Shown here in pieces: positions 25,212 to 63,637 of a stretch of 64,000 bases of DNA. The stretch spans positions 28,197-92,196 of the forward strand of contig CAVPOB010000040.1 of assembly GCA_963706835.1 (NCBI GenBank), read 5' to 3'. The translations under genes and the position numbers were made by a program. The notes beneath the pieces were generated by a model, which was not told the origin of the DNA, searched no databases, and saw nothing but the letters and a program-made list of their open reading frames with translations. This stretch comes from an uncultured Actinomycetota bacterium (lineage in GTDB: Bacteria; Actinomycetota; Actinomycetes; S36-B12; GCA-2699445). Position 1 is the first letter of the stretch; each line of letters opens with the position of its first letter.

Positions 25212-25212
25212 T

Positions 25213-40853: not shown

Positions 40854-41089
40854 CGATCGATCCTCGCCCGCGGCGCTGCTGACTCCACGGGACGCGCCAT
40901 CGTGCGCCGGCCCAGCATGTCGGGGCGGTGGCCGCGACGCCCGGGGACCTTTCCGCGACGCCCGAGATTGCGTCGTATCGACGGCGACCCTCCGAACGGC
41001 CCGTGACTGCGCCGAAGCATCCGATTCGGGGGATCCGCTCCGGTGCCGCTACCCTGGTCTCGCCCGCACGGCGATGACGGGGACGTCAT

Positions 41090-41338
41090 GTTCGAAGCGG
41101 CCGGCAGCAGCGAACCGGGGATGGTGCAAGCCCGGTGCCGGTCCGGACACGGCCATCACCCCACCAGCTGCCGGAAGAACGGTGGGCGCCGAGCCGCAGG
41201 GCCTCGGCGTCGACCCAGTAGAACCGGCCACGGGCAGCCAACGAGAGGCTCGGCGCCGCCGGGCAAGGAGGGTGGGACCGCGGGCCGCACGGCTCGTCCC
41301 TCCAGCACCAGATCAGCAGCTGGCTCGGAGGTTGGCCG
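41090..41338 (+). promoter_or_regulatory. T-box leader RNA of ileS, translational (SD-sequestering) type
   Basis: T-box core AGGGTGGGACCGCG at 41269-41282 (13/14 to AGGGUGGUACCGCG). GGAGGG (41266-41271) can pair with CCCTCC (41298-41303). CCTCC..AGC/GCT..GGAGG can alternatively pair with the SD GGAGG (41327-41331), 7 nt before ATG 41339. Candidate Ile specifier AUC-A lies at 41155-41158, downstream of hairpin ACCGGG/CCCGGT (41114-41136). The 5' boundary is uncertain. Confidence 0.7.
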
Positions 41339-44300
41339 ATGTATCGTCCGGTTCCCGCACGCATCGATCTGCCCGCGATGGAGCGGGAGATCATCGCCTG
41401 GTGGCAGGAGCACGACATCTTCCACCGAAGCCTGGCCGCGAGCGCGGGCAAGCCGATGTGGGTGTTCTACGAGGGTCCGCCCACTGCCAACGGCACGCCG
41501 GGCACGCACCACGTCGAGGCGCGGGTGTTCAAGGACGTGTTCCCGCGCTTCAAGACGATGCAGGGCTATCACGTGCCGCGCAAGGCCGGGTGGGACTGCC
41601 ATGGCCTGCCGGTGGAGCTAGCGGTGGAGAAGCAACTGGGCTTCACCGGCAAGCAGGACATCGAGGCCTTCGGCATCGAGGCCTTCAACGCCAAGTGCCG
41701 CGAGTCGGTGCACGCGCATGTCGACGAGTTCGCGGTCATGACGCAGCGCATGGGCTATTGGGTGGACATGGACCAGGCGTACTGGACCATGAACCCCGCC
41801 TATGTCGAGAGCGTCTGGTGGTCCCTGCAGCAGATCTTCAATGCCGGCCTGCTGGTGCAGGACCACCGGGTCACGCCCTACTGCCCGCGCTGCGGGACCG
41901 GGTTGAGCGACCACGAGATCGCCCAGGGCTACGAGACGGTCGTCGATCCGTCGGTCTTCGTCCGCTTCCCGGTCACCGGTGGTGCGCTGCTGGACCGCTA
42001 CCCGGGCCTGACGCTGCTGGTCTGGACGACGACGCCCTGGACCCTGGTGTCCAACACCGCCGTCGCGGTCAACCCGAAGGCCGACTACGTGGTCGCCCGC
42101 AGCCGCGGGGAGACGTTCCTGGTCGCGCATGACCTGCTCATCGCCACCCTCGGCGAGGAGGCGGAGGTGCTGCAGACCCTGCCCGGCGCTGAGCTGGAGC
42201 GGCTGCCGTACCGGCGGCCCTTTGACCTGGTGGAGATCCCGGATGCCCATTACGTCGTGCTGGGCGAGTACGTGACCACCGACGACGGTACCGGCCTGGT
42301 GCATCAGGCCCCGGCCTTCGGCGCCGACGACCTCGCGGTGTGCAGGGCCTACGACATGCCGGTGGTCAACCCGGTCGCCGCGGACGGCCACTTCGCCCCC
42401 GAGGTCGGCCTGGTCGGCGGCATGTTCTTCAAGAAGGCCGATGAGACGCTCGTCGCCGATCTGCAGCAGCGCGGGCTGCTGTTCGCCCACGTGCCCTACG
42501 AACACGCCTACCCGCACTGCTGGCGCTGCCACACGCCGCTGATCTACTACGCCCAGCCGTCCTGGTACATCCGCACCACCGAGATCAAGGACCGATTGCT
42601 GGCCCAGAACGAGGGCACCAACTGGTTCCCGGCCACCATCCAGTGGGGTCGCTACGGCGACTGGCTGCACAACAACATCGACTGGGCCCTGTCCCGGGAT
42701 CGCTACTGGGGGACGCCGCTGCCCATCTGGCGCTGCGACGAGGACCACTTGACGGCCATCGGCTCGTTGGCCGAGCTCGGCGAGTTGGCCGGGCGCGACC
42801 TCACCGGCTTCGACCCGCACCGGCCCTACGTGGACGACATCACCTTCCCCTGCCCCACGTGCCAGGCGGAGTCGCGCCGCGTGCCGGAGGTCATCGACTG
42901 CTGGTACGACTCCGGCGCCATGCCGTTCGCGCAGTTCGGCTACCCGCACCGGGGGGCGGAGGACTTCGACGCCCAGTACCCGGCGGACTTCATCTGCGAA
43001 GCCATCGACCAGACCCGGGGGTGGTTCTACACGCTGATGGCCGTCGGGACGCTGGTCTTCGACCAGAGCGCCTACCGCAACGTCGTCTGCCTCGGTCACA
43101 TCCTCGACGAGGACGGCCGAAAGATGAGCAAGCACCTCGGCAACGTCCTGGAGCCGGTGCCGCTGATGGACGCCCACGGCGCCGATGCGGTGCGCTGGTT
43201 CATGCTCGCCGCGGGCTCGCCGTGGCAGGCGCGCAGGGTCGGTCACCAGGCCATCGAGGAGGTCGCGCGCAAGACCCTGCTCACCTACTGGAACACCGTC
43301 TCGTTCCAGTCGCTGTATGCAAGGGCCGCAGACTGGAGCCCCGGGGCCGCGGTCGGCGAGCGGACCGACCTGGACCGTTGGCTGCTGTCGCAGGCCCAGG
43401 TGCTGGTGCGCGACGTCACCGAGGCCCTGGAGCGCTTCGACACCCAGCGTGCCGGTCGGGCGCTGGCCGCCTTCGTCGACGAGACGTCGAACTGGTACGT
43501 GCGCCGGTCCCGGAGGCGGTTCTGGGAGGGCGATCCGGCGGCGCTGGCTACGTTGCACGAGGCGCTGCGCATCATGACCCTCGCCATGGCCCCGTTCACG
43601 CCATTCATCACCGAGCAGGTCTGGCAGAGCCTGTTCGCGGGCGTCGAAGGGGAACCGGAGTCGGTGCACTTGGCGTCGTGGCCCACGTTGGAAGAGTCGC
43701 TCATCGACGGCGACCTCGGCGCCGACATGGCCATGGTCCGCCGCGTGGTCGAACTCGGCAGGGCCGCCCGGGCCAGTTCCGGGGTGCGCAACCGCCAGCC
43801 GCTGGCCGCGTGCCTGGTGGCGGGGGCACGTTGGGCCCGCCTGTCGCAGCAGCTGCGCGACGAGATCGCCGAGGAGCTCAACGTGCAGCGGGTGATCGGT
43901 CTGGCCGATCACGCGGGCGACTTGGTCGATGTGCAGGTCAAAGCGAACTTCCGCGCGTTGGGCAAGCGGTTCGCCAAGCAGACGCCGCTGGTGGCCAAGG
44001 GCATCGCGCAGGCCGATGGCGCGGCGCTGGCCGCCGAGGTGCGCGGGGCCGGCAGCGCCACGCTGGAGGTTGCGGAGGTGGGGCAGGTGACGCTCACCGC
44101 TGACGATCTCATCATCACCGAGACCCCCCGGGAGGGCTGGACCGTCGCCGCAGAGAGCGGCGACACCGTGGCGCTGGACCTCCACCTCACCGACGAACTG
44201 GTGCGGGCCGGCCTGGCCCGGGAAGTCACCCGGTTCCTGCAGGAGACGCGCAAGCAGGCCGGCCTGGAGATCACTGATCGCATCGATGTGGTGTGGTCCA

Positions 44301-44458
44301 GCGAGGACGGCGAGGTGGCGGCGGCGATCGGCGAGCACGCGGCCACCATCGCCGAGGAGGTGCTGGCGCTGCAGTTCTCCAACGGCGAGCCGGGAGGGGG
44401 CCACACCGCGGCGTCGGAGGAACTGCGGCTGCGGGTCTCGGTGCAGCGGCACTCCTGA
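41339..44458 (+). CDS. ileS: isoleucine--tRNA ligase
   Basis: Intact 1039-aa ORF with PPTANGTPGTHHVEARV (HIGH region), KMSKHLGNV (KMSKS) and an editing domain. Confidence 0.97.
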   Translation: MYRPVPARIDLPAMEREIIAWWQEHDIFHRSLAASAGKPMWVFYEGPPTANGTPGTHHVEARVFKDVFPRFKTMQGYHVPRKAGWDCHGLPVELAVEKQLGFTGKQDIEAFGIEAFNAKCRESVHAHVDEFAVMTQRMGYWVDMDQAYWTMNPAYVESVWWSLQQIFNAGLLVQDHRVTPYCPRCGTGLSDHEIAQGYETVVDPSVFVRFPVTGGALLDRYPGLTLLVWTTTPWTLVSNTAVAVNPKADYVVARSRGETFLVAHDLLIATLGEEAEVLQTLPGAELERLPYRRPFDLVEIPDAHYVVLGEYVTTDDGTGLVHQAPAFGADDLAVCRAYDMPVVNPVAADGHFAPEVGLVGGMFFKKADETLVADLQQRGLLFAHVPYEHAYPHCWRCHTPLIYYAQPSWYIRTTEIKDRLLAQNEGTNWFPATIQWGRYGDWLHNNIDWALSRDRYWGTPLPIWRCDEDHLTAIGSLAELGELAGRDLTGFDPHRPYVDDITFPCPTCQAESRRVPEVIDCWYDSGAMPFAQFGYPHRGAEDFDAQYPADFICEAIDQTRGWFYTLMAVGTLVFDQSAYRNVVCLGHILDEDGRKMSKHLGNVLEPVPLMDAHGADAVRWFMLAAGSPWQARRVGHQAIEEVARKTLLTYWNTVSFQSLYARAADWSPGAAVGERTDLDRWLLSQAQVLVRDVTEALERFDTQRAGRALAAFVDETSNWYVRRSRRRFWEGDPAALATLHEALRIMTLAMAPFTPFITEQVWQSLFAGVEGEPESVHLASWPTLEESLIDGDLGADMAMVRRVVELGRAARASSGVRNRQPLAACLVAGARWARLSQQLRDEIAEELNVQRVIGLADHAGDLVDVQVKANFRALGKRFAKQTPLVAKGIAQADGAALAAEVRGAGSATLEVAEVGQVTLTADDLIITETPREGWTVAAESGDTVALDLHLTDELVRAGLAREVTRFLQETRKQAGLEITDRIDVVWSSEDGEVAAAIGEHAATIAEEVLALQFSNGEPGGGHTAASEELRLRVSVQRHS

Positions 44459-45968: not shown

Positions 45969-46444
45969 TCAACTCTGGTTGAAGAAGCCGTCCCGCGCCT
46001 GACGGACTGCGGGGGCGTCTCGCACATCGACGTTCTGCGGCGAGAGCAGGAAGACCTTGTTCGTCACGCGCTCGATGGAGCCGTGGAGGCCGAAGACCAG
46101 ACCGGCCGCGAAATCGACGACGCGCTTGGCGTCGGCGCCGTCCATCTCGGTCAGGTTGATGATGACGGGGTGGCCGGAGCGATACTCCTCGCCGATCCGC
46201 CGTGCGTCGTTGTACGAGCGCGGATGGATCGTGTGGATGGCGTGCACCTCGGCGACCGCCGTAGCCGTACCGGCCCCGCGTAGGTCGCCGGCTCATGGTG
46301 GGTCGACCGCACCGGCGCGGGGTCGGAGACCGGCGCGAGCCGCCGCTCCGGCTCCTGGTAGCCGTAGTCGTCGTAACCGACAGCCATCGGGTCGTCCTCG
46401 ACAAGGCCGAGATACACCCCGATCTTGCGCATTGCGTTTGCCAT
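45969..46444 (-). pseudogene. sepF: cell division protein SepF; one frame break
   Basis: MANAMRKIGVYLGLVEDD.. (ATG 46444, in ORF 46151..46615), then ..[55 protein letters not shown] (ORF 45969..46247). The break is near 46265-46280. Confidence 0.9.
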
Positions 46445-47210: not shown

Positions 47211-47932
47211 GCTGCGGGACCCAGCACTGCCAGCACTGCCTGCCTTCCGGTGATGCCGTCGCGCCGATGCGAGTACAGCGTCGAATCTTCCGCGGTGCAG
47301 CGCTCGTCGGGGGTGATGGCCCGGCAGCCGGCAGCCCGCAGTTGTGCCACGGTCCCGCCGACGAGGTCGATCGCTGCGGCACCCGATGCCGTGGTCGCCC
47401 AGGCCTGCGGAACCGCCGCCGAGACCTGATCGCGCACCCCGTCGGACACCTCATAGCAGGCCGGGCAGATTGCCGGCCCCAGCCGCACCAGCAGTTGCGA
47501 TGTGTCAGCACCCATGCGTTCCAGGGCGGCGATGGTGGCCGGGACGATCCCGGCCGCCAGGCCCCGCCAGCCGCAGTGGAAGACCGCCGCGGCCGGCAGG
47601 TCTGGCGCGGCAATCGCTCCGGCCACACAGTCGGCGGATAGCGCCAGCAACCCAAGCCCGGGCCTGGTCGTGACCAGCGCATCCCCGGTCGGCGCCCGCC
47701 CGCCTACGGCCACCTTGTGGACCGTGCTGCCGTGCTCGGCGTCGATGACGGCGGCCTCGTCGACGTTGGCAGCCGCCGCCACCAACCGCCGATTGGCCGA
47801 CACCGCAGCAGCAGCATCACCGACATGGTCGGCCAGGTTGAGGCTGTCCCAGGGAGGCAGGCTGCTGCCGCCGCGTCGGTCGGTCAGGACCAGCCGGACC
47901 GGGCCCAGCGCCTCGGCCCGAGCCGGGATCAC
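47207..47932 (-). CDS. pgeF: DUF152/YfiH-family peptidoglycan editing factor (polyphenol oxidase-like)
   Basis: [39 protein letters not shown]...[13 protein letters not shown]...CPACYEV...YSHRRDG. GTG 47932 overlaps the ftsZ stop. Confidence 0.88.
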
Positions 47933-49100
47933 TGCAGCCAGGCGGGCAGGTCGATGCCGTCCCCGGTCTCGTTGTCGAACTTGATCTTGCGGGGCTCGAC
48001 CGGGGTCCCGCGGTCCTCCGTCGGGGCAGCGGCAGCCGCGCTGGGGCCGCGGCTCGTGGCTGCGTACGTCCACGACGCGCTCCCGGCCCTCCCGCTCCGG
48101 CGAGGTGTTGACCACCCGCTGCTCCTGGGCGCGCAACCTCGGCAGGCCGCCGTCGAAGCCCGCGGCGATCACCGTCACCCGCACCTCGTCGCCAAGGGTG
48201 TCGTCGATGACCGCGCCGAAGATGATGTTCGCTTCCGGGTGCGCCGCCTCGGTCACCAGCCGCGCGGCCTCGTTGATCTCGAAGAGCCCGAGGTCGCGAG
48301 CCGCCGGCGATCGACATCAGCACACCGTGGGCGCCGTCGATCGTGGCCTCCAGCAGCGGTGAGTTGATCGCGCCCTCGGCAGCCGTGACCGCGCGTTCCT
48401 CGCCCCGGGCCGAGCCGATGCCCATCAGCGCCGAGCCGGCCCCCTCCATGACCGACTTCACATCGGCGAAGTCGAGGTTGATCAGACCAGGGGTGGTGAT
48501 GAGGTCGGTGATGCCGGAGACGCCCTGCAGCAGCACGTGGTCGGCCTGGCGGAAGGCGTCGATCATGCTGATCTTGCGATCGGTCAGCGACAGCAGGCGG
48601 TCGTTGGGGATCACGATGAGGGTGTCGACCTCGGAGCGGAGCGACTCGATGCCCTCCTCGGCCTGCACCGAGCGGCGCCGACCCTCGAAGTTGAACGGCC
48701 GGGTCACAACGCCGATGGTCAGCGCACCCAGGCCCCGGGCGATCCGCGCCACGACCGGCGCTCCGCCCGTGCCGGTGCCGCCGCCCTCGCCAGCCGTCAC
48801 GAAGACCATGTCGGCGCCCTTGATGACCTCTTCGATCTCCTCGGCGTGGTCCTCGGCCGCCTTGCGGCCCACCTCCGGGTTCGCCCCGGCCCCCAGGCCG
48901 CGGGTCAGGTCGCGACCGATGTCGAGCTTGACGTCGGCATCGCTCATCAGCAGTGCCTGGGCGTCGGTGTTGATGGCGATGAACTCCACGCCCTTGAGCC
49001 CGACTTCGATCATCCGGTTGACGGCGTTGACACCGCCGCCGCCGATGCCGACGACCTTGATGACTGCCAAGTAGTTCTGCGGAGCGGCCACGGCCACCAT
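47929..49100 (-). pseudogene. ftsZ: cell division GTPase FtsZ; 2 frame breaks
   Basis: [30 protein letters not shown]...[13 protein letters not shown]...MSIAGGS (ORF 47817..49100), then [47 protein letters not shown] (frame of ORF 47207..48256). The C-terminal peptide ..[23 protein letters not shown]-stop is in the third frame. Breaks are near 48290 and somewhere in 47990-48110. Confidence 0.93.
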
Positions 49101-49167
49101 CCCTTCTCGCCACCCTCAGGTGGATCATCCGATGCGCCGGCAGGACGCTGCTTCAACTTCCACTTGA

Positions 49168-49240
49168 GGGTCAATCCCCTCCCCCTACCGCCGCAGTGAC
49201 ACTAGGAGGGCGGGCGCATGGGGCGCAAGGGATTGACCCC
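49168..49240 (-). promoter_or_regulatory. long-range inverted repeat in the ftsQ-ftsZ intergenic region (ftsZ leader or promoter)
   Basis: GGGTCAATCCCCT (49168-49180) and AGGGATTGACCCC (49228-49240) are near-perfect reverse complements 47 nt apart. Each arm contains a TTGACC hexamer on one strand. Confidence 0.35.
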
Positions 49241-49304
49241 AGAACACGCCGACGATTCTTCTTGGCTTGAAGGGGCGCTTCAGGGTTCTTGCCCCGTCGC
49301 TGTC

Positions 49305-50092
49305 CTAGGGCTGGGCGGGAGCCGGAATCCCTTGCAGCGCGGGCCGTTCCGGGACGGCCACGCTGTATCGCTCGGCACCCACGGGAAGGAGTTGCCCGAG
49401 GACCGCGAACTTCTCGGCGAGGCGATCAGGGGCACCGAGATCGACGATCGCTCCCGATGTCAGCCGCACCTCGACGCTGCCGCCGCTGGCGGTCACGGTC
49501 ACCGTGTCGGTCTGCGGCAGCAGGGCGTCGGGGACCTGCTGCACCACCTGCAGCCCCACCAGTCGCTGCTCGTCCCCCACCGCCTCCAGCAGCGGCAAAC
49601 CGGGCGGCCGTTGACCGACCTGCCGGATGGCAGCACCGGTCGGGTCCAGGACGCGGAATCCGGCCGCGGGTCGCCACGACGGCCACCGGTTCCTGCTCCG
49701 TCACCGCGATGGCGAGGGTGTTCCACCACCGCCAGTCGATGGTGGCCGCCTGGACGCCCTCGATGGATTCCAACCGCTGCCACCAGCGCCTCTGCGTCCA
49801 CGGCGCGGAAGGCCTGACCGACCACATTCGGCGTCGCTGCCACGACGGCTGGCTTCACGCTCGGCCCAGCGCCCTCGATGACGATGCCGGCCACCTGGAA
49901 GGGGGACTGCATGCTCGAGGCCAGCATCGCCCCCGCCAGCACGGCGGAGCCGGCCGCACCGGCGACCAGCAGTCGCCATGACGGGCGACGCAGCACGGTG
50001 CGGCGGCGTCGCTGCCGCTGATCCGCCGAGTCCTCGGGCCGCGCCGCCGGCTCCGCAGTGGCCAGCCCGGCGCCGCTGGACGGCTCAGTCAT
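49305..50092 (-). pseudogene. ftsQ: cell division protein FtsQ/DivIB; 2 frame breaks
   Basis: MTEPSSGAG..RRPSWRLLVAGAAGSAVLAGAML..FQVAGIVIEGAG (ORF 49499..50092), ESIEGVQAATIDWRWWNTLAIAVTEQEPVAVV (49426..49827) and LPLLEAVGDEQRLVGLQVV..VEVRLTSGAIVDLG (49305..49598). Confidence 0.85.
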
Positions 50093-51554
50093 GCCCGGCC
50101 CGTCCGGGCTTCCAGCAGGTCCAGCACCTCGGCGCCGAGCAGCGAGATGTCACCGGCACCGAGCGTCATGATGATGTCGCCCGGCTCGGCGAACTCGACG
50201 AGACGCTCGCGGCACCATCGCCCAGGACGGCTCGAAGACGACGCTGCCGGTCAGGGCGCGGCACTGCGGCGGCCATGGCCTGGCCGCTGGCGCCGGGGAT
50301 CGGGGTCTCCCCCGGGGCGAAGACCTCCAGCACCACGACTCGGTCCGCGATGCCGAGCGCGTCGGCGAACTCCGTGAGGAAGAGGGCGGTGCGATAGTAG
50401 TGGTGGGCCTGGAACGCGACGATCACCTTCCCGTCCCCGACGAAGTCCTGCGCGGCCCGCAGCGTGGCAGCGATCTCGGTCGGGTGGTGGGCGTAGTCGT
50501 CGTAGACGCGCACCCCGGCCGCCTCCCCGACGTGAAGTCGAATCGGCGCCGCGTGCCGGTGAAGCTGCCAACCCGGCAAGGATGTCGGCGGCCGGGTAGC
50601 CGAGGCCGTGGACCACGGCGAACGCCGCTGTCGCGTTCAGCGCGTTGTGCAGACCGAGCACCTGCAGTTCGGCGACACCACCGTCGCCAGCGCGGGGCCG
50701 GATGCGCGATCGTGGCGCCGTCGGCGCGCTGCTGCTCGACACTCAGCCGATAGTCCGCGTCCTCGCTCGTGCCGTAGGTCCGCACCGCGATCCCGCTGGC
50801 CGCGCCCGCTCGGCCAACGCGCGCGCGCCCGGGATCGTCGAGGCAGATGCACCGCGAAGCCCTCCGCGATCGCGCCACCGACGCGACGAAGCCGTCGAAG
50901 CCGGCCTCCAGCGCCGACAGGTCGCCCCAGAAGTTCAGGTGGTCGGCTTCCAGATTGGTCACGACCGCCACATAGGGCTCCAGGCGCAGGAAGCAGCCGT
51001 CCGACTCGTCGGCCTCCACGACGAACCACGGGCGAGCCGGTGAAGCGACCGTTGGTACCCGGTCTGGCTCATCTCCGAGCCCACGATGTAGGACGGGTCG
51101 GCCCCGCAGTGCAGCAGCGCGACCGTGACCATGGAGGTCGTCGTGGTCTTGCCGTGGGTACCGCCCTACGGCAATGGGCCGAGCGCCCGCGCATCGCGGA
51201 TCGCCAGGGCGGCAGAGCGCTCCATGACCCGCAGACCACTGCGGCCGGGCGGCCGACCAGTTCCGGGTTGTCGTCGGACACCGCCGTGGAGTACATGACC
51301 GTGGTGGCGTCACCCAGATGCGCCGCATCGTGGCCGACGTAGGTCGGTCGCGCCCTGCTCGCGCAGCGCCGCCAGTCGCTTGCTGTCCTTGGCGTCGCTG
51401 CCGGACACCGGCCACGCCTCGGTCCAGCAGCATCCGGGCAATCGCGCTCATCCCCGCCCCGCCGATACCCAGGATGTGGACCGCGCCGAGTTGGTCCGGG
51501 ATCGACCACCTCCAGGTCGGAGGCGACCGTGGCGACGTTGGGGCCGTCGGTCAT
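50089..51554 (-). pseudogene. murC: UDP-N-acetylmuramate--L-alanine ligase; 12 or more frame breaks
   Basis: MTDGPNVATVASDLEVV (ATG 51554), [160 protein letters not shown] and [21 protein letters not shown] lie in all three frames. The stop overlaps the ftsQ ATG. Confidence 0.92.
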
Positions 51555-52661
51555 GATCGAGCACCCTTCCCGCGAGGCGACGGCCTGCAGCGACAGCCGG
51601 GCCAGTCGCGCGTCGCCGTCCCGCACGCCGTAGGCCGCCGCCGCTGCGGCCATGCCTGCGCAAGGCGTCGGCCTGCCCGATGAGATCTCCCACCGTGGCG
51701 AGGAAGCGCTGCGGCGTCATGTCGGCATCATCGACCAGCATCGCCGCCGCCGGCCCGCACGACGGGCTCGGCGTTGAAGCGCTGCTCCCCGTTGCCGATC
51801 GGGAAGGGAACGTAGACCGCCGGCAGCCCGACGGCTGCGATCTCGCCACACGTCATCGCACCCGAGCGGCACACCGCCAGATCGGCCGCGGCATAGGCGA
51901 GGTCCATCCGGTCGACGTACGGCACCGGGACGTAGTGCATGCGGTCCATCCGGCGCCGCCGGCACCAGCGCCGTGTCGGTCTTGGGGCCGTACGCGTGCA
52001 GGATGCTGATCTCGCGGTCGCGCAGTTGCGGCAGCGCGCCCCAGACCGCCTCGTTGAGCCGCTTGGCGCCCTGGGATCCGCCGAACACCAGCACGCAGGG
52101 TGCGTCGGGGTCCAGTCCGAAGAACGCCCGCCCGGCCCCCCGCTCGGCGTATCGGTCCAGACCGGAGATCGCGGTGCGCAGCGGCAGGCCGAGCCGCACG
52201 GCCCCCGGCAGGCTGCCGGCATAGTTCTCGGCGACGAAAGGCGTGAAGCGAGCACCCACCCGATTGGCCAGGCCGGGCTTCGCGTTCGCCTCGTGCACGA
52301 CGATGGGCACTCCAGGCTGACGAGCGGCGAAGTAGGCGGGGATCGACACGTAGCCGCCGAAGCCAACCACCACGTCGGCAGCGGTCGTTGCAGCACGGCC
52401 TTCACAGCCGCTATCGAGGTCCGCAGCCGCCCGGGCAGGGTTGCCAGGTCCTTGCCGGGCTTGCGCGGCAGCGGCACCGGCGGGATCAGTTCCAACGGGT
52501 AGCCGCGTGGCGGGCACGAGCCTGGTCTCCAGGCCCTTCTCCGTGCCCAGCGCGGTGATCGCCACGTCCTGCTCGTGGTCGCGCAGGTAGTCCGCGAGGT
52601 TCATGGCGGGCTCGATATGGCCGGCGGTGCCGCCACCGGCCACCACGACATTGATCGTCAT
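51551..52661 (-). pseudogene. murG: undecaprenyldiphospho-muramoylpentapeptide beta-N-acetylglucosaminyltransferase; at least 5 frame breaks
   Basis: [26 protein letters not shown] (ATG 52661), [59 protein letters not shown] and [50 protein letters not shown] alternate between ORFs 51717..52994, 51728..52495 and 51448..51849. Confidence 0.92.
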
Positions 52662-53948
52662 GTCGCGCCCTTCTCCTGGGGTTGCCGGTGCTGGCCGCCG
52701 GTCCGCGCACGGCGCTCGGATCGCCCCGCAGCGGGACGGGCCCGAGAGGTCCCGAAGCGCGGCGGCGCAGCGGGGCCGTGCACGGACCTGTTTGGCGAGG
52801 ACCAGCAGGATCACGCCGATCCCCATCAGCACCGGGATCAGCGAAGAGCCCCCGTAGGAGACCAGCGGCAGGGTGACACCGGTGATCGGCAGCAGTTTGA
52901 GGGTGGCACCGATGTTGGTGATCACCTGGACCATCAGCCACATCGCCACGCCCGCCGCCACGAACTGCGTGAACCGATCAGAGGTCAGCTGCACCAGTCG
53001 CAGGATCGCGAAGATGAGCAGACCGAAGAGAGTGAGCGACGCTCAGCGTGCCGATCAGGCCGAGCTCCTCACCCAGGACGGCGAAGATGAAGTCGGTGTG
53101 CGCGGCGGGGAGCGTGCCCCACTTCTCCCTGCTGCCGCCCAGGCCCACGCCGAACAGCCCACCCGTGCCGAAGGCGTACATCCCCTGCGTCACCTGCCAC
53201 GCCCCATCCAGCCGATCGGCTTCGGGGTTGAGGAACGACGTGAACCGCTGCACCCGGTAGGGCGCGATCCAGGCCAGGAAGACCACACGCCGCCAGTCCC
53301 ACCGCTCCGATGAGCGCGAACAGGCGCAGCGGGGCCCCCGCCACGAACAGCAGCCCGCACAAGATGGACCATCAGGATCATCGCGTTGCCGAAGTCCCCC
53401 TCGAGCAGGACGAGGATGACCAGCAGCAACCCAACCGGCAGGACCGGTAGGAGGAGTCGGTGCCAATCGGTAACCGCGCGGTGTCGTCGCGCCAGCGCGT
53501 CGGCGCCCCACAGGATCAGTGCGAGTTTGGCGAACTCGCTGGGCTGGATCCGCAGCGTGCCCCCGATGCCGATCCAGTTGCGCTGACCGCCCACCTCGAT
53601 ACCGATCCCGGGGATCAGCACGAGCAGCAGCAGGAAGACCACGATCGCGAGGAAGGGCACCGCGAGACTGCGGATCAGCGTCAGGGGCAGGCGCGAGATG
53701 AGCACCAGCGCCACCACGCCCAGGACGGCGAACAGCCCCTGCTTGGTCAGCGTGGCCAGGCTGGAGCTGCCGCTCTGGATGCTGCCAATCGATGACGCCG
53801 ACCACACCATCAGCAGGCCCAGGGTCAGCAGGAGGAACGTCGAGCCCACGACCAGGTACGGGATAGACCGAGGCCGGCCGAGGCTGCGGTGCACCCGCTG
53901 CACGGACCGGCGCAACAGTCCCGGGTCATCCAGTTCCGCTGCCCTCAT
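52658..53948 (-). pseudogene. ftsW: FtsW/SEDS-family peptidoglycan glycosyltransferase; at least 4 frame breaks
   Basis: MRAAELDD..YLVVGSTFLLLTLGLLMVWSAS..IQPSEFAKLALILW (ORF 53190..53948), LCGLLFVAGAPLRLFAL (53069..53362), FLNPEADRLDGAWQVTQGMYAFGTGGLFGVGLGGS..LPAAHTDFIFAVLGEELG (52978..53805) and LLPITGVTLPLVSYGGSSL (51717..52994). The stop is only reachable in another frame (ATGA with murG). Confidence 0.9.
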
Positions 53949-55371
53949 CGCGACCTTCCTGCATCGCCAGCACCGCCTCGGCGAAGGCGTCGCCCCGGTG
54001 ACCGTAGTTGCGGAACATGTCCCACGACGCGCACCCGGGCGCCAGCAGTACGCAGTCGCCCGACTGGGCCGCGGCGGCTGCCGCAGCTACGACCTCGGCC
54101 ATCGCCCCAGTGTCGGTCCTATCGATGTCGATGCGGGGGACATCGGGGGCGTGTCGGCGCAGCGCGGCCGCCACCTCGCCGCGGTCGATGCCGAGCAGGA
54201 CCACTGCCCGCAGCCGGTCTGCCACCTTCGGCACCAGCTCGTCGAAGGACTGCCCCTTCGCCATCCCGCCGGCGATCCAGACCACGTGGTCGAACGCGGC
54301 CAGCGATGTCTGCGCAGCATGGGCATTGGTGGCCTTGGAATCGTCGATGTACTGCACGCCGTCGATGGTGGCGACGTGGGCGATGCGGTGGGCCGCGGGC
54401 CGGAAGTTCCGCAGCCCGTCCCGCACCGCGCTCGGCGCGACGCCCCAGGCACGCGCCAGGGCAGCCGCTGCCAGGGCGTTGGCCACCTGGTGCGGCGCCC
54501 GCGGGTGGACGTCGTCCAGCGCGGCGAGTTCCTGGGCGGAGTTGCGGCGATCGGCGACGAAGGCACGGTCCACCAGCAGGTCCTCCACCACACCCAGCTC
54601 TGACGGGGCGGGCGGGCCGAGGCCGAACCCGATCGCGCGGCACCCCTCGATGACGTCCGCCTCCTGGACCATGCGCAGCGTCGCGGGGTCGGCCACGTTG
54701 TAGACCGCCGCCACTCGGGTGCGCTCGTAGGCCTTGGCCTTGGTGGACACGTACTGCTCGAAGGTGCCGAAGTGATCGACGTGGTCCTCGGCGATGTTCA
54801 GGCAGACCGTGGAATGGGGGCTCACGGTGTGCCAGAACGGCAACTGCGGGGCGCCGATCTCGACCGCGATCACATCGAGCCGCTGCTTGGCGACCACGCT
54901 GACCAGCGAGGTCCCGATGTTGCCGGCCGCCACGGTGGCCGCACCAGCCGCCCGCAGGATCGACTCCAGCATCAGTGTCGTCGTCGTCTTGCCGTTGGTA
55001 CCGGTGATGACCAGCCAGTCCGCAGCCGTCGAAGGGTCCTGCAGCCGCCATGCCAACTCCAGCTCCCCCCAGACCGGCAATCCGGCCCCGAGTGCCGCCC
55101 GAATGATGGGGGCGGTGGGCGGGAAGCCCGGCGATACCACGAGCAGGTCCAGGCCGTCGGGCAGTGTATCCGCATCGCCCAACCGCACCTCAGCGCCCAG
55201 GTCGGTCAGGGCTCCCGCCCGCTCCTGACGCTGCGCATCGGTGCCCGCGTCCACCGCCACCACCGCAGCCCCTCGTTCCAGAAGTGCCTCGGCGCAGGCG
55301 AACCCGGCAACGCCGATCCCCGCTACCGCCACCCGTTGGCCGGCGAACTCGCCCCTGTCGGCTGCGCTCAT
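53926..55371 (-). CDS. murD: UDP-N-acetylmuramoylalanine--D-glutamate ligase
   Basis: C-terminal 481 aa of ORF 53926..56703: MSAADRGEFAGQRVAVAGIGVAGFA...ITGTNGKTTTTLML...DDSKATN. ATG 55371 overlaps the mraY stop. Confidence 0.95.
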   Translation of the reverse strand: MSAADRGEFAGQRVAVAGIGVAGFACAEALLERGAAVVAVDAGTDAQRQERAGALTDLGAEVRLGDADTLPDGLDLLVVSPGFPPTAPIIRAALGAGLPVWGELELAWRLQDPSTAADWLVITGTNGKTTTTLMLESILRAAGAATVAAGNIGTSLVSVVAKQRLDVIAVEIGAPQLPFWHTVSPHSTVCLNIAEDHVDHFGTFEQYVSTKAKAYERTRVAAVYNVADPATLRMVQEADVIEGCRAIGFGLGPPAPSELGVVEDLLVDRAFVADRRNSAQELAALDDVHPRAPHQVANALAAAALARAWGVAPSAVRDGLRNFRPAAHRIAHVATIDGVQYIDDSKATNAHAAQTSLAAFDHVVWIAGGMAKGQSFDELVPKVADRLRAVVLLGIDRGEVAAALRRHAPDVPRIDIDRTDTGAMAEVVAAAAAAAQSGDCVLLAPGCASWDMFRNYGHRGDAFAEAVLAMQEGRDEGSGTG

Positions 55372-56435
55372 GTGGTCACCCACTCCGCGTAGAAGATGGT
55401 CAGGCCCATCCCCACCATGAGGGCGTGGATGATCCAGAACCGCACGACGATGAGGATCTCCGGCCAGCCCACCAGTTCGAAGTGGTGATGCAGCGGGGCC
55501 ATCCGGAAGACGCGCTTCCCGGTGAGTTTGAAGGAGCCGACCTGCAGGATCACCGAGACGGTGATGACGACGAACAGGCCGCCGGTCAGCACGAGCAGCA
55601 ACTCGGTGCGCGTCATGATGGCCAGAGCGGCGATGGCACCGCCGATGGCCAACGATCCGGTGTCGCCCATGAAGATGCGGGCCGGCGAGGTGTTCCACCA
55701 GAGGAAGCCGAAGACGGCACCGGCGCAGGCGGCGGCGAAGACGCCCAGGTCGAGCGGGTCGCGCACGGTGTAGCAGGGATCGAAGGGATCCACCGCGCAC
55801 TGGTTGTTGAACTGCCACACCGTCATCAGCAGGTAGGCCACGAAGGTGATGAGAGCGGCGCCGCTGGCCAGTCCGTCCAGCCCATCGGTGAGGTTCACAC
55901 TGTTGGTGGCCGCGGTGACCAGCAGCCAGATCCAGAACACGAACAGCGCCAGCGGCAGTTCCCAGTTGAAGTCGCGCAGCACCGAGATCGCCTGCGAGGC
56001 CGGTGTCTGCCCGAAGTCGTCGGGGAAGTTCACCGAGAGCACGGCGAAGGAGATGGCCACGAAGGCCTGCCCAAGCAGCTTCGTGCGGGCACGGATACCG
56101 GTGGAGCGCTGCTTGAAGATCTTGAGGTAGTCGTCGGCCATCCCCACCATGCCCAGGCCGATCGTCAGGTAGAGCGCCAGCAGCCCGGTGGGGGTGGGCG
56201 GCGACCAGAAGAGCAACTGGGTGCCGAAATAGCCGATCACCAGGCCGCCGATGATGGCCAGGCCGCCCATCGAAGGTGTGCCGACCTTGCCCTCGTGGGC
56301 GGGGTACTGCACGTCGTCGGTCGACTCGCGGATGGCCTGCGAGTAGCCATGGCGACGCAGGAACCTGATGAGCATCGGCGTGCCCAGCAGGGACACCAGG
56401 CCGGCGATGCCGGCGGCCAGGACGATCGACCTCAT
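55368..56435 (-). CDS. mraY: phospho-N-acetylmuramoyl-pentapeptide transferase
   Basis: Intact 355-aa polytopic ORF: GTPSMGG...NSVNLTDGLDGLA...MGDTGSLAIGG...APLHHHFE. Confidence 0.95.
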   Translation of the reverse strand: MRSIVLAAGIAGLVSLLGTPMLIRFLRRHGYSQAIRESTDDVQYPAHEGKVGTPSMGGLAIIGGLVIGYFGTQLLFWSPPTPTGLLALYLTIGLGMVGMADDYLKIFKQRSTGIRARTKLLGQAFVAISFAVLSVNFPDDFGQTPASQAISVLRDFNWELPLALFVFWIWLLVTAATNSVNLTDGLDGLASGAALITFVAYLLMTVWQFNNQCAVDPFDPCYTVRDPLDLGVFAAACAGAVFGFLWWNTSPARIFMGDTGSLAIGGAIAALAIMTRTELLLVLTGGLFVVITVSVILQVGSFKLTGKRVFRMAPLHHHFELVGWPEILIVVRFWIIHALMVGMGLTIFYAEWVTT

Positions 56436-57838
56436 CGCCGCCCACCACCTTCGGGGGAGTCAGCCAGCAGCGCCTCCGCCACGCGTTCCAGCGCCACGCC
56501 ACGGGATGCCTTGACCAGGACGACATCGCCGGGGGCCACTCCCGCGCGCACCTGCGCGATCGCGGCGGCCACGTCCGGGACCCAGGTCGATTCGCCGTCC
56601 CAGGAACCCTCGTGGCTGGCACCCAGATCGATGGCCCGCGCCCCCTCGCCCACCGCAACGGTGTGACCGATGTTGAGGCGCACCGCCAACCGGCCCAGGG
56701 CATCGTGCTCGGCGGCCGAGTCGCGGCCCAACTCCAGCATCTCCCCCAGCACCGCCCAGGTGCGCCCGCCGGTCTGCCGGCCCATCGCCGCCAGCGACTT
56801 CAGGGCGGCCCGCATGGACTCCGGGTTGGCGTTGTAGGCGTCGTTGACCACGATGACGCCGCTGGGGGCCGTGCGGACATCCATGCGCAGCGCGGACCGG
56901 GCGGTCGCTGCGGACAGCGCCGCGGCGATCTGGTCCAGTGGCATGCCCAGGGCCAGGCCGACGGCGGCGGCCGCGGCGGCGTTGGCGGCCTGATGCTCGC
57001 CGTGCACCTGCAGGGCCACATCGGCGTGCGCGTCAGCGGTCGCGAGTCGGAATCGTGGACGCGCCATGGCATCCAGCCGCAGATCAGCGATCCGGACATC
57101 GGAGGTCGCAGCCTCGCCGAAGGTGAGCACCTCTGCGTCGGTCGCGGAGGCGAGTTCGGCCACGATCGGGTCATCGGCGGTCAGTATTGCGCAGCCGTCG
57201 CGCGGCAGGTCCACGATGATCTCGCTCTTGGCCTTCGCGATGGCCGCCCTGCTGCCGAACTCTCCCAGATGGGCGCTGCCGACGTTGAGCAGGACGCCGA
57301 CCTTCGGTGGCGCGATATCGCACAGGTAGGCGATGTGCCCCACGCCTCGCGCCCCCATCTCCAGGACGAGCGTGCGGGTCGTCTGGTCGGCCTGCAGCAC
57401 GGTCAGCGGCAGCCCCACCTCGGTGTTGAAGGATCCGGAAGGGGCGACCACCGGACCCCGCCGCTGCACGACTTGGGCGATCAGGTCCTTGGTGCTGGTC
57501 TTGCCGGAGGAGCCGGTCACGGCAACCACATCGAGGTCCGGCAGCCGATCGATCACCGCGCGCGCCAGCGTGCCCAGCGCCTCCACGGAGTCGGGCACGA
57601 CGACGGTCGGCACCCCGGTCGGCCGCTCTCCCAACACGCCACAGGCACCGGCGGCCATCACCTCCGCGGCGAAGGTGTGCCCGTCCACCCGCTCTCCGAC
57701 GATCGCAACGTAGAGCTGCCCCTGCTGCACCAGCCGGGAATCGGCGGCGGCACCGGTGACGATCGGATCGTCAGCGCCCGGATCGTGCAGCTCACCGCCG
57801 ACGATCCGGGCCACCTCTGACAGCTTCAGGGCAATCAT
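56432..57838 (-). CDS. murF: UDP-N-acetylmuramoyl-tripeptide--D-alanyl-D-alanine ligase
   Basis: Intact 468-aa ORF: VTGSSGKTSTKDL...NDAYNANPESM. Confidence 0.95.
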   Translation of the reverse strand: MIALKLSEVARIVGGELHDPGADDPIVTGAAADSRLVQQGQLYVAIVGERVDGHTFAAEVMAAGACGVLGERPTGVPTVVVPDSVEALGTLARAVIDRLPDLDVVAVTGSSGKTSTKDLIAQVVQRRGPVVAPSGSFNTEVGLPLTVLQADQTTRTLVLEMGARGVGHIAYLCDIAPPKVGVLLNVGSAHLGEFGSRAAIAKAKSEIIVDLPRDGCAILTADDPIVAELASATDAEVLTFGEAATSDVRIADLRLDAMARPRFRLATADAHADVALQVHGEHQAANAAAAAAVGLALGMPLDQIAAALSAATARSALRMDVRTAPSGVIVVNDAYNANPESMRAALKSLAAMGRQTGGRTWAVLGEMLELGRDSAAEHDALGRLAVRLNIGHTVAVGEGARAIDLGASHEGSWDGESTWVPDVAAAIAQVRAGVAPGDVVLVKASRGVALERVAEALLADSPEGGGRR

Positions 57839-59370
57839 GATTGCTCCAACCGTGCCACGCCCGGCTGCCGGATAGCCTCCAGAACCTCCACCCGGTCGTC
57901 GAACGGCGCGACCACGCCCCGCACCTCCTGGCCCTGCTCGTGCCCCTTGCCGAGGACGAGCACCACATCGCCGGGCTGGGCGCCCAGCACAGCGGCCCGG
58001 ATCGCTGCGCGCCGATCGCCGATTTCGCGCACCCGGCGCAGGAACGGATCCGGGACGCCCGCCAGGACCTGCGCTCGGATGGCTGCCGGATCCTCGGACC
58101 GGGGATTGTCATCGGTCACGATGACCTCGTCGGCGGTTGTTGCCGCGATCTCGCCCATTTTGGGGCGCTTGTCGCGGTCCCGGTCGCCCCCGCAGCCGAG
58201 GACGACGATGACGGAGCCGATGGCGAGCTCGCGCGCCGCAGCGATCACCCGGTGCACGGCATCGGGCGTGTGGGCATAGTCCACGAAGACGGGGAAGGCC
58301 GCGAACTGGGCGCCGATGCGCTCCATGCGGCCCGGCACGGAGCGGGCCAGCAGCAACCCCTGCCGAGCGTGATCGGCCGAGACTCCCGCGGCCCGCAGGG
58401 TCACGTAGGCCCCCAGCGCGTTCGCGGCGTTGAACAGCCCCGGCAGCGGGGACTCCAAGCGCAGCGTCCCGCCGTCCGGGCCGGCGACGGACAGCGCGAG
58501 ATGGCCGGTCGGCGTCGGCTCGACGCGCCAGGCCCGCCAGTCCGCATCAGCCCCGCCGGCGCCCACGGCATAGGTCTGCACCGGTAGAGGGGACTGCGCC
58601 GCCAGCCGTACGCCCCAGTCGTCGTCCACGCACACGACGGCCTCGCCGCTGCGCGCTTGCGTGAACAGGCCCGCCTTGGCGGCGAAGTACTCCTCCATCG
58701 TGCCGTGGAAGTCCAGATGGTCCTGGGTGAGGTTCGTGAACAGGGCGACGTCGAAGCGAAGCCCATCGACGCGGCCCATCATCAGGGCGTGCGAGGACAC
58801 CTCCATGACCACGGCCGTCACGCCCTGTTCCCGCATGACCGCCAGCAGCGCATGCACATCGGGGGCCTCCGGTGTGGTGCGCGCCGAGGGCACCACGCGG
58901 TCATCCACCCAGATGCCGGTCGTGCCGATGACGCCGGTGCGGTATCCGGCGGCGCTCAGGCCGCCCTCGATGAGGTAGCTGGTGGTGGTCTTGCCGTTGG
59001 TCCCCGTGATGCCGATGAGCAGCAACTGCTCGCTCGGGTCGCCGTAGACCCAGCGCGACAGATCCCCCAGCACTGCGCGCGGGTGAACGACGATCGCGTG
59101 TGCCAGTCCCGTCGCGGCCGCTGCGGCCGAACCGGCCGGGTCGGTCAGGATCGCGACGGCTCCCGCCGCCTTCGCCGCCGCGGCGAAGTCCGCGCCGTGG
59201 ACGTTGGACCCCGGCAGTGCGGCGTAGATGTCGCCCGGCTGCACCGAGCGGGAGTCGTTGGTGATGCCGCTCACCTCGGTGCCGCCGGGCACGGGGTCGT
59301 GCCACTCGATCCCGGCCGCGTCACATTCGGCGAGCGCTCGGAAACGCGGAGCGGGCCGCAGCGCGCTCAC
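57835..59370 (-). CDS. murE: UDP-N-acetylmuramoyl-L-alanyl-D-glutamate--2,6-diaminopimelate ligase
   Basis: Intact 511-aa ORF: GITGTNGKTTTSYL...DYAHTPDA...GCGGDRDRDKRP. The diaminopimelate (rather than lysine) specificity is inferred from family context only. Confidence 0.9.
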   Translation of the reverse strand: MSALRPAPRFRALAECDAAGIEWHDPVPGGTEVSGITNDSRSVQPGDIYAALPGSNVHGADFAAAAKAAGAVAILTDPAGSAAAAATGLAHAIVVHPRAVLGDLSRWVYGDPSEQLLLIGITGTNGKTTTSYLIEGGLSAAGYRTGVIGTTGIWVDDRVVPSARTTPEAPDVHALLAVMREQGVTAVVMEVSSHALMMGRVDGLRFDVALFTNLTQDHLDFHGTMEEYFAAKAGLFTQARSGEAVVCVDDDWGVRLAAQSPLPVQTYAVGAGGADADWRAWRVEPTPTGHLALSVAGPDGGTLRLESPLPGLFNAANALGAYVTLRAAGVSADHARQGLLLARSVPGRMERIGAQFAAFPVFVDYAHTPDAVHRVIAAARELAIGSVIVVLGCGGDRDRDKRPKMGEIAATTADEVIVTDDNPRSEDPAAIRAQVLAGVPDPFLRRVREIGDRRAAIRAAVLGAQPGDVVLVLGKGHEQGQEVRGVVAPFDDRVEVLEAIRQPGVARLEQS

Positions 59371-61214
59371 GGCGTAGCCGACTCGGTCGGGATGGTCGGG
59401 ATATCGGAGGGCGGCCGGCCGGACGGCGGCACCTCCAGCGCCGCCAGCGCGGCCTTCGTCACTTCGGTGAAGACCGGGCCTCCGAGCACCCCGCCGTAGT
59501 AGATCCCGCGCGGGTTGTCGAGCCAGACGCCCACCACCACGCGCGGCTCATCGGCCGGTGCCACACCGACGAAGGACGCCGTGTAGCCGCGGTAGCAGCC
59601 GCAGGCCGGGTCGACCCGCTCCGCCGTGCCGGTCTTGCCCCCCACTCGGTAGCCCGGGATCGCCGCCCCAGGCGCGGTGCCGTCCTCGGAGACCACCCGC
59701 TCCATCATCTCCACGACCGCGTCGGCGGTGTCGGCCGTCACCACCTCCCGCTCCTGCGAGGGCGGCGTGGATTGGACCGTGCCGTCCGGCCGCACGTAGG
59801 CGTCGATGAGTTTGGGCTCCACGCGGACTCCGTCGTTTGCCAGCGTTGCGAAGATATCGGCAATCTGCAGCGCACTCAGCGCCACGCCCTGACCGAACGC
59901 GATCGAGGGATAGGTCAACACGCCCCAGTCATCCAGCGGCGGCAGGATGCCCGAAGTCTCGCCCGGGTACTGCAGGCCGGTGGGCTGACCCACGCCGAAC
60001 GCCTGGAGATACTCGTAGTACCGCTGCTCCTCGATCTTCTCCGCGGCCAGGATCGTGCCGATGTTGCTGGACTCGGCGAGCACACCGGCCAGGGTCAGTT
60101 GCAGCGTGCCGTGCGGGGTGTGGTCCTTGAACACGTGCGGTCCGCGAGGCAGCCCGGGCGGCACGACGAATGGCGTCGTCGGCGTCGCGGCCCCTTCGTT
60201 GATCACGGCGGCGTGCGTGAGCACCTTGAAGGTGGAGCCCGGCTCGAAGGCGTTGGTGACCGGCCGGTTGCGCCAGTCGTCCTCGCTGCTCGCGCCCGGG
60301 GTGTTGGGGTCGAAGGTCGGCACGGTGGCCATGGCGAGGATCCGGCCGGTCCCCACCTCAAGCGCCACGACCATGCCGTAGTCGGCGCCCGAGTCGGCGA
60401 CCCGGCGGGCGATCGCGTCCTGAGCGACCCCCTGCAGATCGGCGTCGATCGTGAGCCGCACCCCCGTTCCGGGCACGGGCTCCACGCGCGCTACCTCGCT
60501 GCCGGGAATGATACTGCCGTCCGGTCCCCGCTCGGCGCGGACTTCGCCGGGCGCTCCGGCCAACTCCGGCTCCAGGCCATTCTCCAGACCGACTGCGCCT
60601 TCGCCTTCGGCGTTGGTGAAGCCGATGAGGTTGGCGGCCAATGGGCCGTTGGGGTAGGAGCGTTTGGTCAGGCGCTCGCTGAAGATCGCCTGCAGAGTGA
60701 CCGAATCGTTGTCGGAGTCGCTGCGCCAGTCCTGGATCGCGCGCCACTTGGCCGGATCGACTCCCTTGGCCAAGTACACGAAGCGCTTGTCGCCGGTGAG
60801 CTGCTCCTGCAACTGCGCGCGATCGACCTCCAGGATCGGTGACAGCACCGCTGCTGTGGCGGCCGGATCGACCACGAGCGTCTGATCCGCCGTGATGTTG
60901 CGCACCTCCACCGTCTGCGCCAACGGGCGGCCCTTGGCATCGCTGATCGTTCCCCGCTGCGCCGGGATGACCGATGTGCGCAAGCGCTGGTCCAGGCCGG
61001 CCGAGGCCAGTTCGTCGGAACGCAGCGCCTGCAACTCGATCAGCCGGCCCCCGAACAGCGTCAGCACGAAGAGGAAGGCCAGCAGCGCGACGCTGGATCG
61101 CCGCCGCGGGCTGGCGGCGCGGAACCGGCTGGCGCGGCGCCGTCGGCCAGGTGGCGCAACGGCCGGCCGCTGTGGCCGCGGTCGGGATCGCGGCGGGCTC
61201 TGCACCCCGGCCAT
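59367..61214 (-). CDS. ftsI: class B penicillin-binding protein (division transpeptidase FtsI/PBP3-like)
   Basis: Intact 615-aa ORF with an N-terminal TM, a dimerisation domain, and the transpeptidase motifs GSTFKV (SxxK), ESSNIG (SxN) and GKTGTA (KTG). Confidence 0.93.
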   Translation of the reverse strand: MAGVQSPPRSRPRPQRPAVAPPGRRRRASRFRAASPRRRSSVALLAFLFVLTLFGGRLIELQALRSDELASAGLDQRLRTSVIPAQRGTISDAKGRPLAQTVEVRNITADQTLVVDPAATAAVLSPILEVDRAQLQEQLTGDKRFVYLAKGVDPAKWRAIQDWRSDSDNDSVTLQAIFSERLTKRSYPNGPLAANLIGFTNAEGEGAVGLENGLEPELAGAPGEVRAERGPDGSIIPGSEVARVEPVPGTGVRLTIDADLQGVAQDAIARRVADSGADYGMVVALEVGTGRILAMATVPTFDPNTPGASSEDDWRNRPVTNAFEPGSTFKVLTHAAVINEGAATPTTPFVVPPGLPRGPHVFKDHTPHGTLQLTLAGVLAESSNIGTILAAEKIEEQRYYEYLQAFGVGQPTGLQYPGETSGILPPLDDWGVLTYPSIAFGQGVALSALQIADIFATLANDGVRVEPKLIDAYVRPDGTVQSTPPSQEREVVTADTADAVVEMMERVVSEDGTAPGAAIPGYRVGGKTGTAERVDPACGCYRGYTASFVGVAPADEPRVVVGVWLDNPRGIYYGGVLGGPVFTEVTKAALAALEVPPSGRPPSDIPTIPTESATP

Positions 61215-63137: not shown

Positions 63138-63166
63138 CCTCGCTGCGGGAGGAGGCCGGAAGTCGC

Positions 63167-63601: not shown

Positions 63602-63637
63602 CGGGCCACCTCCTCTCACCTCCCAGACCTGGTCATG

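Follow-up and report, generated by a model that had tools for sequence, protein, structure and literature searches.

Clustered frame breaks in the division and cell wall genes of an uncultured actinobacterium are very probably consensus errors

The dcw cluster and its frame breaks

The window, the whole 64 kb stretch of DNA analysed, carries a normal actinobacterial dcw (division and cell wall) cluster with the gene order mraZ, rsmH, ftsL, ftsI, murE, murF, mraY, murD, ftsW, murG, murC, ftsQ, ftsZ, pgeF, yggS, sepF and yggT. As judged from ORFs and alignments, this canonical actinobacterial order and the gene orientations agree with those of L083, a close relative with intact orthologues, and of L001, and in both of these all the dcw genes are in one frame. 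The eight genes from mraZ to murD (53926–63655, minus strand) are ORFs of normal length. The first-pass annotation had described them as free of breaks, and this holds for all eight, either as zero frameshifts or as a single-frame alignment. Frameshift-aware alignment called no frameshifts in ∼2,000 control codons of murF, mraY, murD, pgeF, yggS, yggT and a cyclase-like gene, while murE, ftsI, ftsL, rsmH and mraZ each gave a single-frame match to L001.

Between 49200 and 54000, by contrast, three-frame translation of the minus strand gives conserved protein text that switches frame repeatedly. Peptides quoted in the first-pass annotation, LPITGVTLPLVSYGGSSL among them, were recovered in this translation, and the ORF list of the window holds no normal-length ORF for murC, murG or ftsW. 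Breaks were counted by frameshift-tolerant dynamic programming of protein against DNA, with the called intact proteins of L083 as references. Stop-to-stop ORFs of L001 were dropped as references because they gave false frameshift calls where genes overlap. Plain tblastn merges over the dense breaks in murC, murG and ftsW, and thus reports too few.

All four genes lie on the minus strand. Two frame breaks were found in ftsQ (49308–50092), at ∼49780 (+1 nt) and ∼49662, and the gene appears in tblastn as three HSPs in three frames. The most heavily affected gene is murC (50095–51554), with 17 breaks at ∼51500, 51409, 51345, 51257, 51238, 51201, 51188, 51166, 51060, 51032, 50833, 50804, 50707, 50570, 50532, 50252 and 50209, comprising 13 of +1 nt, one of +2 and three of −1 or equivalent. 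After correction, MurC has no stops and shares 85% identity with its L083 counterpart and 84% with its best database match. Five breaks in murG (51564–52661) lie at ∼52508, 52383, 51944, 51742 and 51672, and MurG, once corrected, shares 92% identity with that of L083. Four breaks in ftsW (52662–53948), at ∼53369, 53287, 53037 and 52784, are evident from ORFs, translation and the L083 alignment. Two further frameshift calls in the unconserved ftsW tail sum to −3 and probably represent an in-frame difference. Past the last break, this tail ends at a natural stop overlapping the murG ATG; in the uncorrected sequence the last ftsW segment is fused in frame with murG (ORF 51717–52994).

The alignment thus confirmed the frame breaks and allowed each to be counted and typed. 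The initial estimate of about two breaks in ftsQ and at least 12, 5 and 4 in murC, murG and ftsW was accurate or slightly low, and the segments between breaks, described there as family-typical, are conserved throughout in the alignment to L083. The extent first given, 49305–53400, does contain real breaks in the sequence, but the run continues into ftsZ (47929–49125, minus strand), where L083 alignment and tblastn place two or three breaks (∼48296 and 48041, with a third indel at ∼49107, either at the start or upstream of it), and damage reaches sepF (45969–46444, minus strand), where the same methods find one −1 nt break at ∼46277–46279. There are about 31 breaks in 48.0–53.4 kb against none in 53.4–63.7 kb, a contrast far beyond chance. 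Errors are densest, at ∼2%, within the 5′ third of murC and thin out on either side. A frame HMM based on composition alone gives the same pattern of broken and clean genes across the window, and on the loci of three relatives it returns one segment each for ftsW, murG, murC, ftsQ and ftsZ.

Damage elsewhere in the window and the sister-strain contigs

A second dense patch affects gltD (three frame switches) and gltB (15) at 8373–14370 on the minus strand. An ORF near 1500 aa is absent for gltB, and its frame-corrected translation matches all four GltB Pfam domains end to end over the junctions. A third patch (16282–18535, minus strand) comprises a thioredoxin-like gene, trpA (three switches) and trpB (one), with Thioredoxin_4, Trp_syntA (1–241 of 259) and PALP matches bridging the frame junctions. 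Scattered breaks are found in hisI, a PNPOx-like gene, hisF and hisH (24302–27700), where Pfam domains bridge the HMM junctions; hisH has two switches, and hisF, hisI and dnaE have one or more each. One frame break, near 35325, interrupts dnaE (32498–36064, minus strand); its PHP domain is in a different frame from its pol III alpha domain, and a 1180-aa ORF is absent. With the exception of dnaE, every one of these additional damaged genes has a Pfam match running straight over the junction. Damage is indifferent to gene function, with gltB, gltD, trpA, trpB, hisH, hisF, hisI and dnaE all affected. GC content did not differ between dirty and clean blocks, and Rfam and tRNA scans of the window gave no matches.

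A selective hit on wall and division genes, raised in the first-pass annotation as the less likely reading, is therefore not borne out: unrelated genes in the same 64 kb are damaged too, in at least two more dense patches and at several single breaks, and the run itself extends to ftsZ and sepF.

Independent data came from three Logan contigs of SRA run SRR25893897 (L081, L082 and L084), which align to the window over 7.6 kb at 99.2–99.5% identity; at ∼0.5% divergence their source is strictly a sister strain, a different clone. There are 41 mismatches, of which 30 are synonymous and 10 nonsynonymous, and third codon positions account for 29 of 40; they represent natural polymorphism. The entire 7.6 kb contains only two indels, and these coincide precisely with the breaks predicted in ftsZ and sepF. 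At 48041 the window has one extra base relative to L082, in which the 3′ end of ftsZ is in frame, and at ∼46279 L084 carries a C that is missing from the window and encodes an intact SepF of 158 aa. L081 aligns to 54011–58725 with no gaps. The comparison reaches two breaks, both in genes flanking the 28 breaks of 49305–53400, and only the ftsZ break sits in the dense run. The Logan contigs stop at 48229 and 54011, on either side of the dense patch. No near-identical MurC was present among the protein matches listed, either for the full corrected MurC (best 84%) or for its N-terminal half, and corrected FtsQ gave four matches, all ≤64%. Identical copies of MraY, YggS and YggT are on record on a 0.2–1 Mb contig. 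Exact-protein look-ups of murD, pyk, a methyltransferase (14554–15345) and hisB returned no record, probably because of start-codon differences.

Indel spectrum, selection and the case for real breaks

From sepF to ftsW, 27 of the 34 frame-breaking events are +1 nt. Thirteen insertions could be placed cleanly; 11 of these lie outside homopolymers, and 11 add a G or a C. The corrected genes were searched for signs of pseudogenization (nonsense mutations, larger deletions and raised dN/dS), and these were absent: there is no in-frame stop in ∼2,080 corrected codons, there are no deletions of more than 2 nt, and the broken genes and their intact neighbours have the same dN/dS relative to L083, 0.13. 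Identity to L083 is 85–97% for the corrected broken genes, except for the fast-evolving FtsQ (64%), and 74–97% for the intact genes. As read from these alignments, purifying selection is undiminished between the indels.

These results bear directly on whether the genes could be broken in the organism. A lineage, or a subpopulation captured in the reads, might recently have lost ftsQ, murC, murG, ftsW and ftsZ, for example in becoming wall-less, L-form-like or degenerating. The indels are present in the deposited sequence, and same-species independent sequence was retrieved for none of 48.3–54.0 kb. However, bacterial gene decay is usually deletion-biased, the opposite of the insertion-biased spectrum here, and the lack of stops and deletions and the equal dN/dS of broken and intact genes argue against loss of function. 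Moreover, gltB, gltD, trpA, trpB, the his genes and dnaE are also damaged whilst murD, murE, murF and mraY are spared, and the ftsZ and sepF lesions are not reproduced in the 99.2–99.5% identical strain. The 33 indels in 5.3 kb would also outnumber the ∼29 substitutions that the divergence observed between strains predicts. We thus regard real inactivation as very improbable. A variant in which the insertions are real and stem from a recent, localized, insertion-biased mutational burst (such as error-prone patch synthesis), with sequencing having caught a non-viable or wall-less lineage or subpopulation, seems more improbable still.

Mycobacterium leprae exemplifies the accumulation of pseudogenes in reductive genome evolution, and pseudogenes of that type share with the window several frame disruptions in recognizable genes. 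Unlike them, the window has no in-frame stops, deletions or rise in dN/dS, its essential genes are broken beside perfect pathway neighbours, and its ftsZ and sepF lesions are missing in the sister strain.

Since each segment between breaks is fully conserved, the breaks might alternatively be bypassed by transcriptional slippage or programmed ribosomal frameshifting, so that the genes are still expressed, as happens with frameshifted genes in some endosymbionts. A single gene would then need as many as 17 such sites. Of the cleanly placed insertions, 11 of 13 lie outside homopolymers, the sites do not coincide with slippery motifs and none is conserved, the L083, L001 and L007 orthologues being single-frame, so that the idea is effectively refuted; the ftsZ and sepF sites are, in addition, missing in the sister strain. 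GeneTack sorts prokaryotic frame transitions into sequencing errors, programmed frameshifts, phase variation and pseudogenes (PMC3711429). The transitions seen here resemble those in GeneTack in being changes of frame inside conserved genes that coding statistics alone can detect (here the frame HMM). Conserved, functional transitions, however, involve a single site in each gene and are found again in orthologues, whereas the window has up to 17 per gene, none common to orthologues.

Consensus error and its likely source

We consider it very probable that the breaks are a patchy consensus-indel artefact and that the genes are intact in the organism, making this a matter of data quality rather than biology. 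The first-pass annotation had likewise preferred a locally uncorrected, indel-rich stretch, and this reading is supported by the predominance of 1-nt insertions without stops or decay, by the equal dN/dS of broken and intact genes, by the same damage in unrelated housekeeping genes and by the absence of the ftsZ and sepF breaks from an independent same-species assembly. Under such an artefact, the deposited consensus would contain single-base indel errors, chiefly spurious 1-nt insertions, gathered in patches, with 48.0–53.4 kb as one such patch. The source would most likely be a long-read or hybrid metagenome contig whose consensus was locally built on very few reads or missed by polishing, and was clean elsewhere. 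The occurrence of identical proteins on a contig of 0.2–1 Mb, compared with same-organism Logan contigs of 1–5 kb, fits a long-read origin.

An artefact of another cause is possible, though we hold it only tentatively: instead of simple low depth, error-prone long reads may have bridged the gaps between accurate short-read contigs in a hybrid assembly, or consensus building or polishing may have been confused by co-occurring strains. Clean blocks of 5–10 kb do alternate with dirty patches, the dense patch is bracketed by the two Logan contig ends, the public data hold at least two strains ∼0.5% apart, and the extra base at 48041 adjoins a strain SNP. On the other hand, the breaks follow a bell-shaped curve along the patch, with 16 of the 31 falling in 50.5–51.5 kb, rather than an even, sharp-edged profile; lone breaks occur within otherwise clean blocks (dnaE and sepF); and a mixture of two indel-free haplotypes would not by itself yield 1-nt insertions.

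The frame breaks are almost certainly not a real biological feature, and their importance is limited to quality control. Annotated as it stands, such a contig would acquire dozens of false pseudogenes, with murC, murG, ftsW, ftsZ, dnaE and gltB as the essential genes affected, and this could mislead on whether an uncultured actinobacterial lineage is wall-less or has a reduced genome. Where frame breaks are clustered, of insertion type and accompanied by an intact selection signature, re-polishing is called for rather than a biological reading.

Long-read consensus indels that fragment genes are a documented artefact, one that Kastor, for example, addresses (PMC12007338). As in long-read or under-polished bacterial and MAG assemblies, single-base indels in the window cut conserved genes into neighbouring pieces that differ in frame. 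As in under-polished assemblies too, the fragments are family-typical and the breaks disappear in more accurate data from the same organism, here for ftsZ and sepF. The residual errors commonly described concern homopolymer length and are spread along the genome, whereas those in the window are strongly clustered, reaching ∼2% in places beside 10 kb that are free of them, and they are biased towards insertions and lie mainly in non-homopolymer sequence. Any naming of a platform is a guess; the insertion bias and the non-homopolymer context depart from the classic nanopore signature.

The dcw cluster and its frame breaks

The final 18 kb of the window (G+C ∼70%) carry a canonical actinobacterial dcw cluster on the minus strand: mraZ (63167-63655), rsmH (61996-62970), ftsL (61214-61999), ftsI (59367-61214), murE (57835-59370), murF (56432-57838), mraY (55368-56435) and murD (53926-55371), followed by ftsW, murG, murC, ftsQ, ftsZ, pgeF, yggS, sepF and yggT. 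The closest locus from a species-level genome is L001, an uncultured actinomycete MAG (MurD 80% identity), and the majority of the other relatives are Nanopelagicales-like MAGs. L083, a JGI metagenome contig, is nearer than L001, with 64-97% amino-acid identity per gene (for most, at least 85%), and every dcw-cluster gene of the window is called intact on it.

In the three minus-strand translations of 49200-54000, conserved protein text jumps between frames, and the peptides quoted in the first-pass annotation are present there. Proteins called on L083 were aligned to the window with our own protein-to-DNA aligner, in which 1- and 2-nt frameshifts were allowed. This gave 2 frame breaks in ftsQ, 17 in murC, 5 in murG and 4 in ftsW, in agreement with the earlier counts (roughly 2, and at least 12, 5 and 4, respectively). 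Two additional calls in the unconserved tail of ftsW add up to −3 and probably reflect a difference that keeps the frame. By the same alignment, murF, mraY, murD, pgeF, yggS, yggT and a cyclase-like gene contain no breaks, and murE, ftsI, ftsL, rsmH and mraZ each keep one frame when matched to L001; the adjacent 10 kb are thus as flawless as had been described. The breaks had been placed at 49305-53400, where they indeed lie, but they are not confined there: the L083 alignment extends the run beyond its start into ftsZ (47929-49125; 2-3 breaks, at ∼48296 and 48041) and sepF (45969-46444; one break, at ∼46277-46279), and other patches exist. Break density is bell-shaped, with 16 of 31 breaks within 50.5-51.5 kb and a thinning toward 48.0 and 53.4 kb.

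The ftsW tail after the ∼52784 break ends at a natural stop overlapping the murG ATG. The insertion at ∼52784 puts the final FtsW segment in frame with MurG, creating a spurious 425-aa fusion ORF (51717-52994, minus strand) that could pass for a novel protein at annotation.

A composition-only frame HMM, trained on intact genes, gave the same fragmentation of the window as the aligner. Applied to L083, L001 and L007 (another relative's locus), it returned a single segment each for ftsW, murG, murC, ftsQ and ftsZ, and therefore does not invent breaks. In the murF of L001 (L001 6464-8019) it changes frame once, at ∼7494, which could reflect either a frameshift in that MAG or a mistake by the HMM.

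Broken genes elsewhere in the window

In two further stretches, 8.6-14.2 kb and 16.3-18.5 kb, the HMM found same-strand frame switches in dense succession; others are scattered. Its segments were translated each in its own frame, joined and matched to Pfam. For gltB (9875-14370, minus strand), the joined translation is a 1485-aa protein whose matches cross ∼15 frame junctions and cover all four Pfam domains end to end: GATase_2 (1-420 of 420), Glu_syn_central (1-277 of 277), Glu_synthase (4-368 of 369) and GXGXG (3-188 of 190), while the window contains no ORF of GltB size (1485 aa). The neighbouring gltD (8373-9737, minus strand; 3 junctions) has a full-length Pfam match after frame correction, and the gltB/gltD patch is no better than the murC patch. 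Within 16282-18535 on the minus strand, Pfam matches cross 3 junctions in trpA (Trp_syntA 1-241 of 259) and one each in trpB and a thioredoxin-like gene; the 5′ end of lgt is probably also frame-broken. Between the two patches, a methyltransferase gene (14554-15345) and most of lgt are clean. Pfam-supported junctions recur within 24302-27700, in hisH (2) and in hisF, hisI and a PNPOx-like gene (at least one each), and a single break at ∼35325 leaves the PHP and polymerase domains of dnaE in different frames. The composition HMM points to possible breaks in rluD (∼37728) and an MDMPI-like gene.

In all there are ∼60-65 frame breaks across the 64 kb, strongly clustered. Clean blocks occupy ∼1-8, 18.6-24, 28-46 and 53.4-64 kb, the third being interrupted by single breaks in dnaE (∼35.3 kb) and possibly rluD (∼37.7 kb). 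The phenomenon is not restricted to wall genes or to 49305-53400. Damage to gltB, the trp and his genes and dnaE, while murD, murE, murF and mraY are perfect, argues against real pseudogenisation of the broken genes.

Nowhere in the 64-kb window did an Rfam family reach its gathering score, and tRNAs were likewise absent from the scans. The same holds for the 0.5-kb leader (upstream region 40851-41361) of the plus-strand gene ileS (41339-44458), a plausible place for a regulatory RNA.

Character of the indels

In the L083 alignment, 27 of 34 events are a single extra base in the window. Local nucleotide alignment to L083 placed 13 extra-base events cleanly, 11 of them outside homopolymers; the inserted bases were G (6), C (5), T (1) and A (1). 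In textbook descriptions, the residual errors of polished nanopore data have a different profile from this excess of insertions outside homopolymers. The corrected reading frames contain no stop codons and no deletion >2 nt. The corrected proteins match L083 as closely (FtsW 86.5%, MurG 91.8%, MurC 85.4%, FtsZ 96.5% identity) as their intact neighbours do (MurF 88.2%, MraY 93.8%, MurD 88.7%), and the Nei-Gojobori dN/dS against L083 is 0.13 for both the broken and the intact set. Pseudogenisation is contradicted by this equality of dN/dS, by the lack of stops and deletions and by the insertion-biased spectrum. Programmed frameshifting or slippage, by which the genes would be expressed despite the breaks, is likewise contradicted: the sites are too numerous, slippery or homopolymer contexts are lacking, and orthologues do not have the sites.

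Sister-strain sequence and the origin of the breaks

Exact-protein look-ups with the window's MraY, YggS and YggT each gave an independent Logan contig of SRA run SRR25893897, from a sister strain of the same species. The first (L081; window 54011-58725, 99.5% identity) aligns without gaps. The second (L082; 46434-48229, 99.2%) has one gap, an extra window base at 48041, which is the predicted ftsZ break, and its ftsZ 3′ end is open through to the stop. The third (L084; 45330-46445, 99.5%) also has one gap, the window lacking a C at ∼46279, which is the predicted sepF break; this contig encodes an intact 158-aa SepF. The 41 substitutions against the three contigs (30 synonymous, 10 nonsynonymous; 29 of 40 at third codon positions) are ordinary strain polymorphism, and therefore real divergence between these strains gives substitutions, not indels. 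The sole indels are the two frame-breaking ones, both on the window's side, and both comparisons speak against pseudogenisation. For 48.3-54.0 kb no same-species sequence was retrieved, and among the matches listed from a 15-billion-protein collection none exceeded 84% for corrected MurC or 64% for corrected FtsQ. The contig ends at 48229 and 54011 flank the dense patch, just outside it, which may be either coincidence or a common coverage problem.

The run of frame breaks is not a biological feature. It is very probably uncorrected, indel-rich sequence, the reading favoured by the first-pass annotation and now supported by the indel character, dN/dS, the non-specific damage and the two sister-strain comparisons. 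We extend this verdict to the 28 breaks in 49305-53400 because they have the same character as the two directly tested breaks, the ftsZ one lying in the same run, and because of the selection analysis and the non-specific damage. Consensus indels in long-read assemblies have been documented to fragment genes (PMC12007338), and sequencing-error frame transitions are a recognised class (PMC3711429). We infer the platform, and also the source of the patchiness; candidates for the latter are low depth in places, unsuccessful polishing, gap filling in a hybrid assembly and interference between strains. Identical MraY, YggS and YggT are also encoded together on another contig, 0.2-1 Mb long and presumably the source of the window, compared with 1-5 kb for the organism's Logan contigs, which fits a long-read origin of the window.
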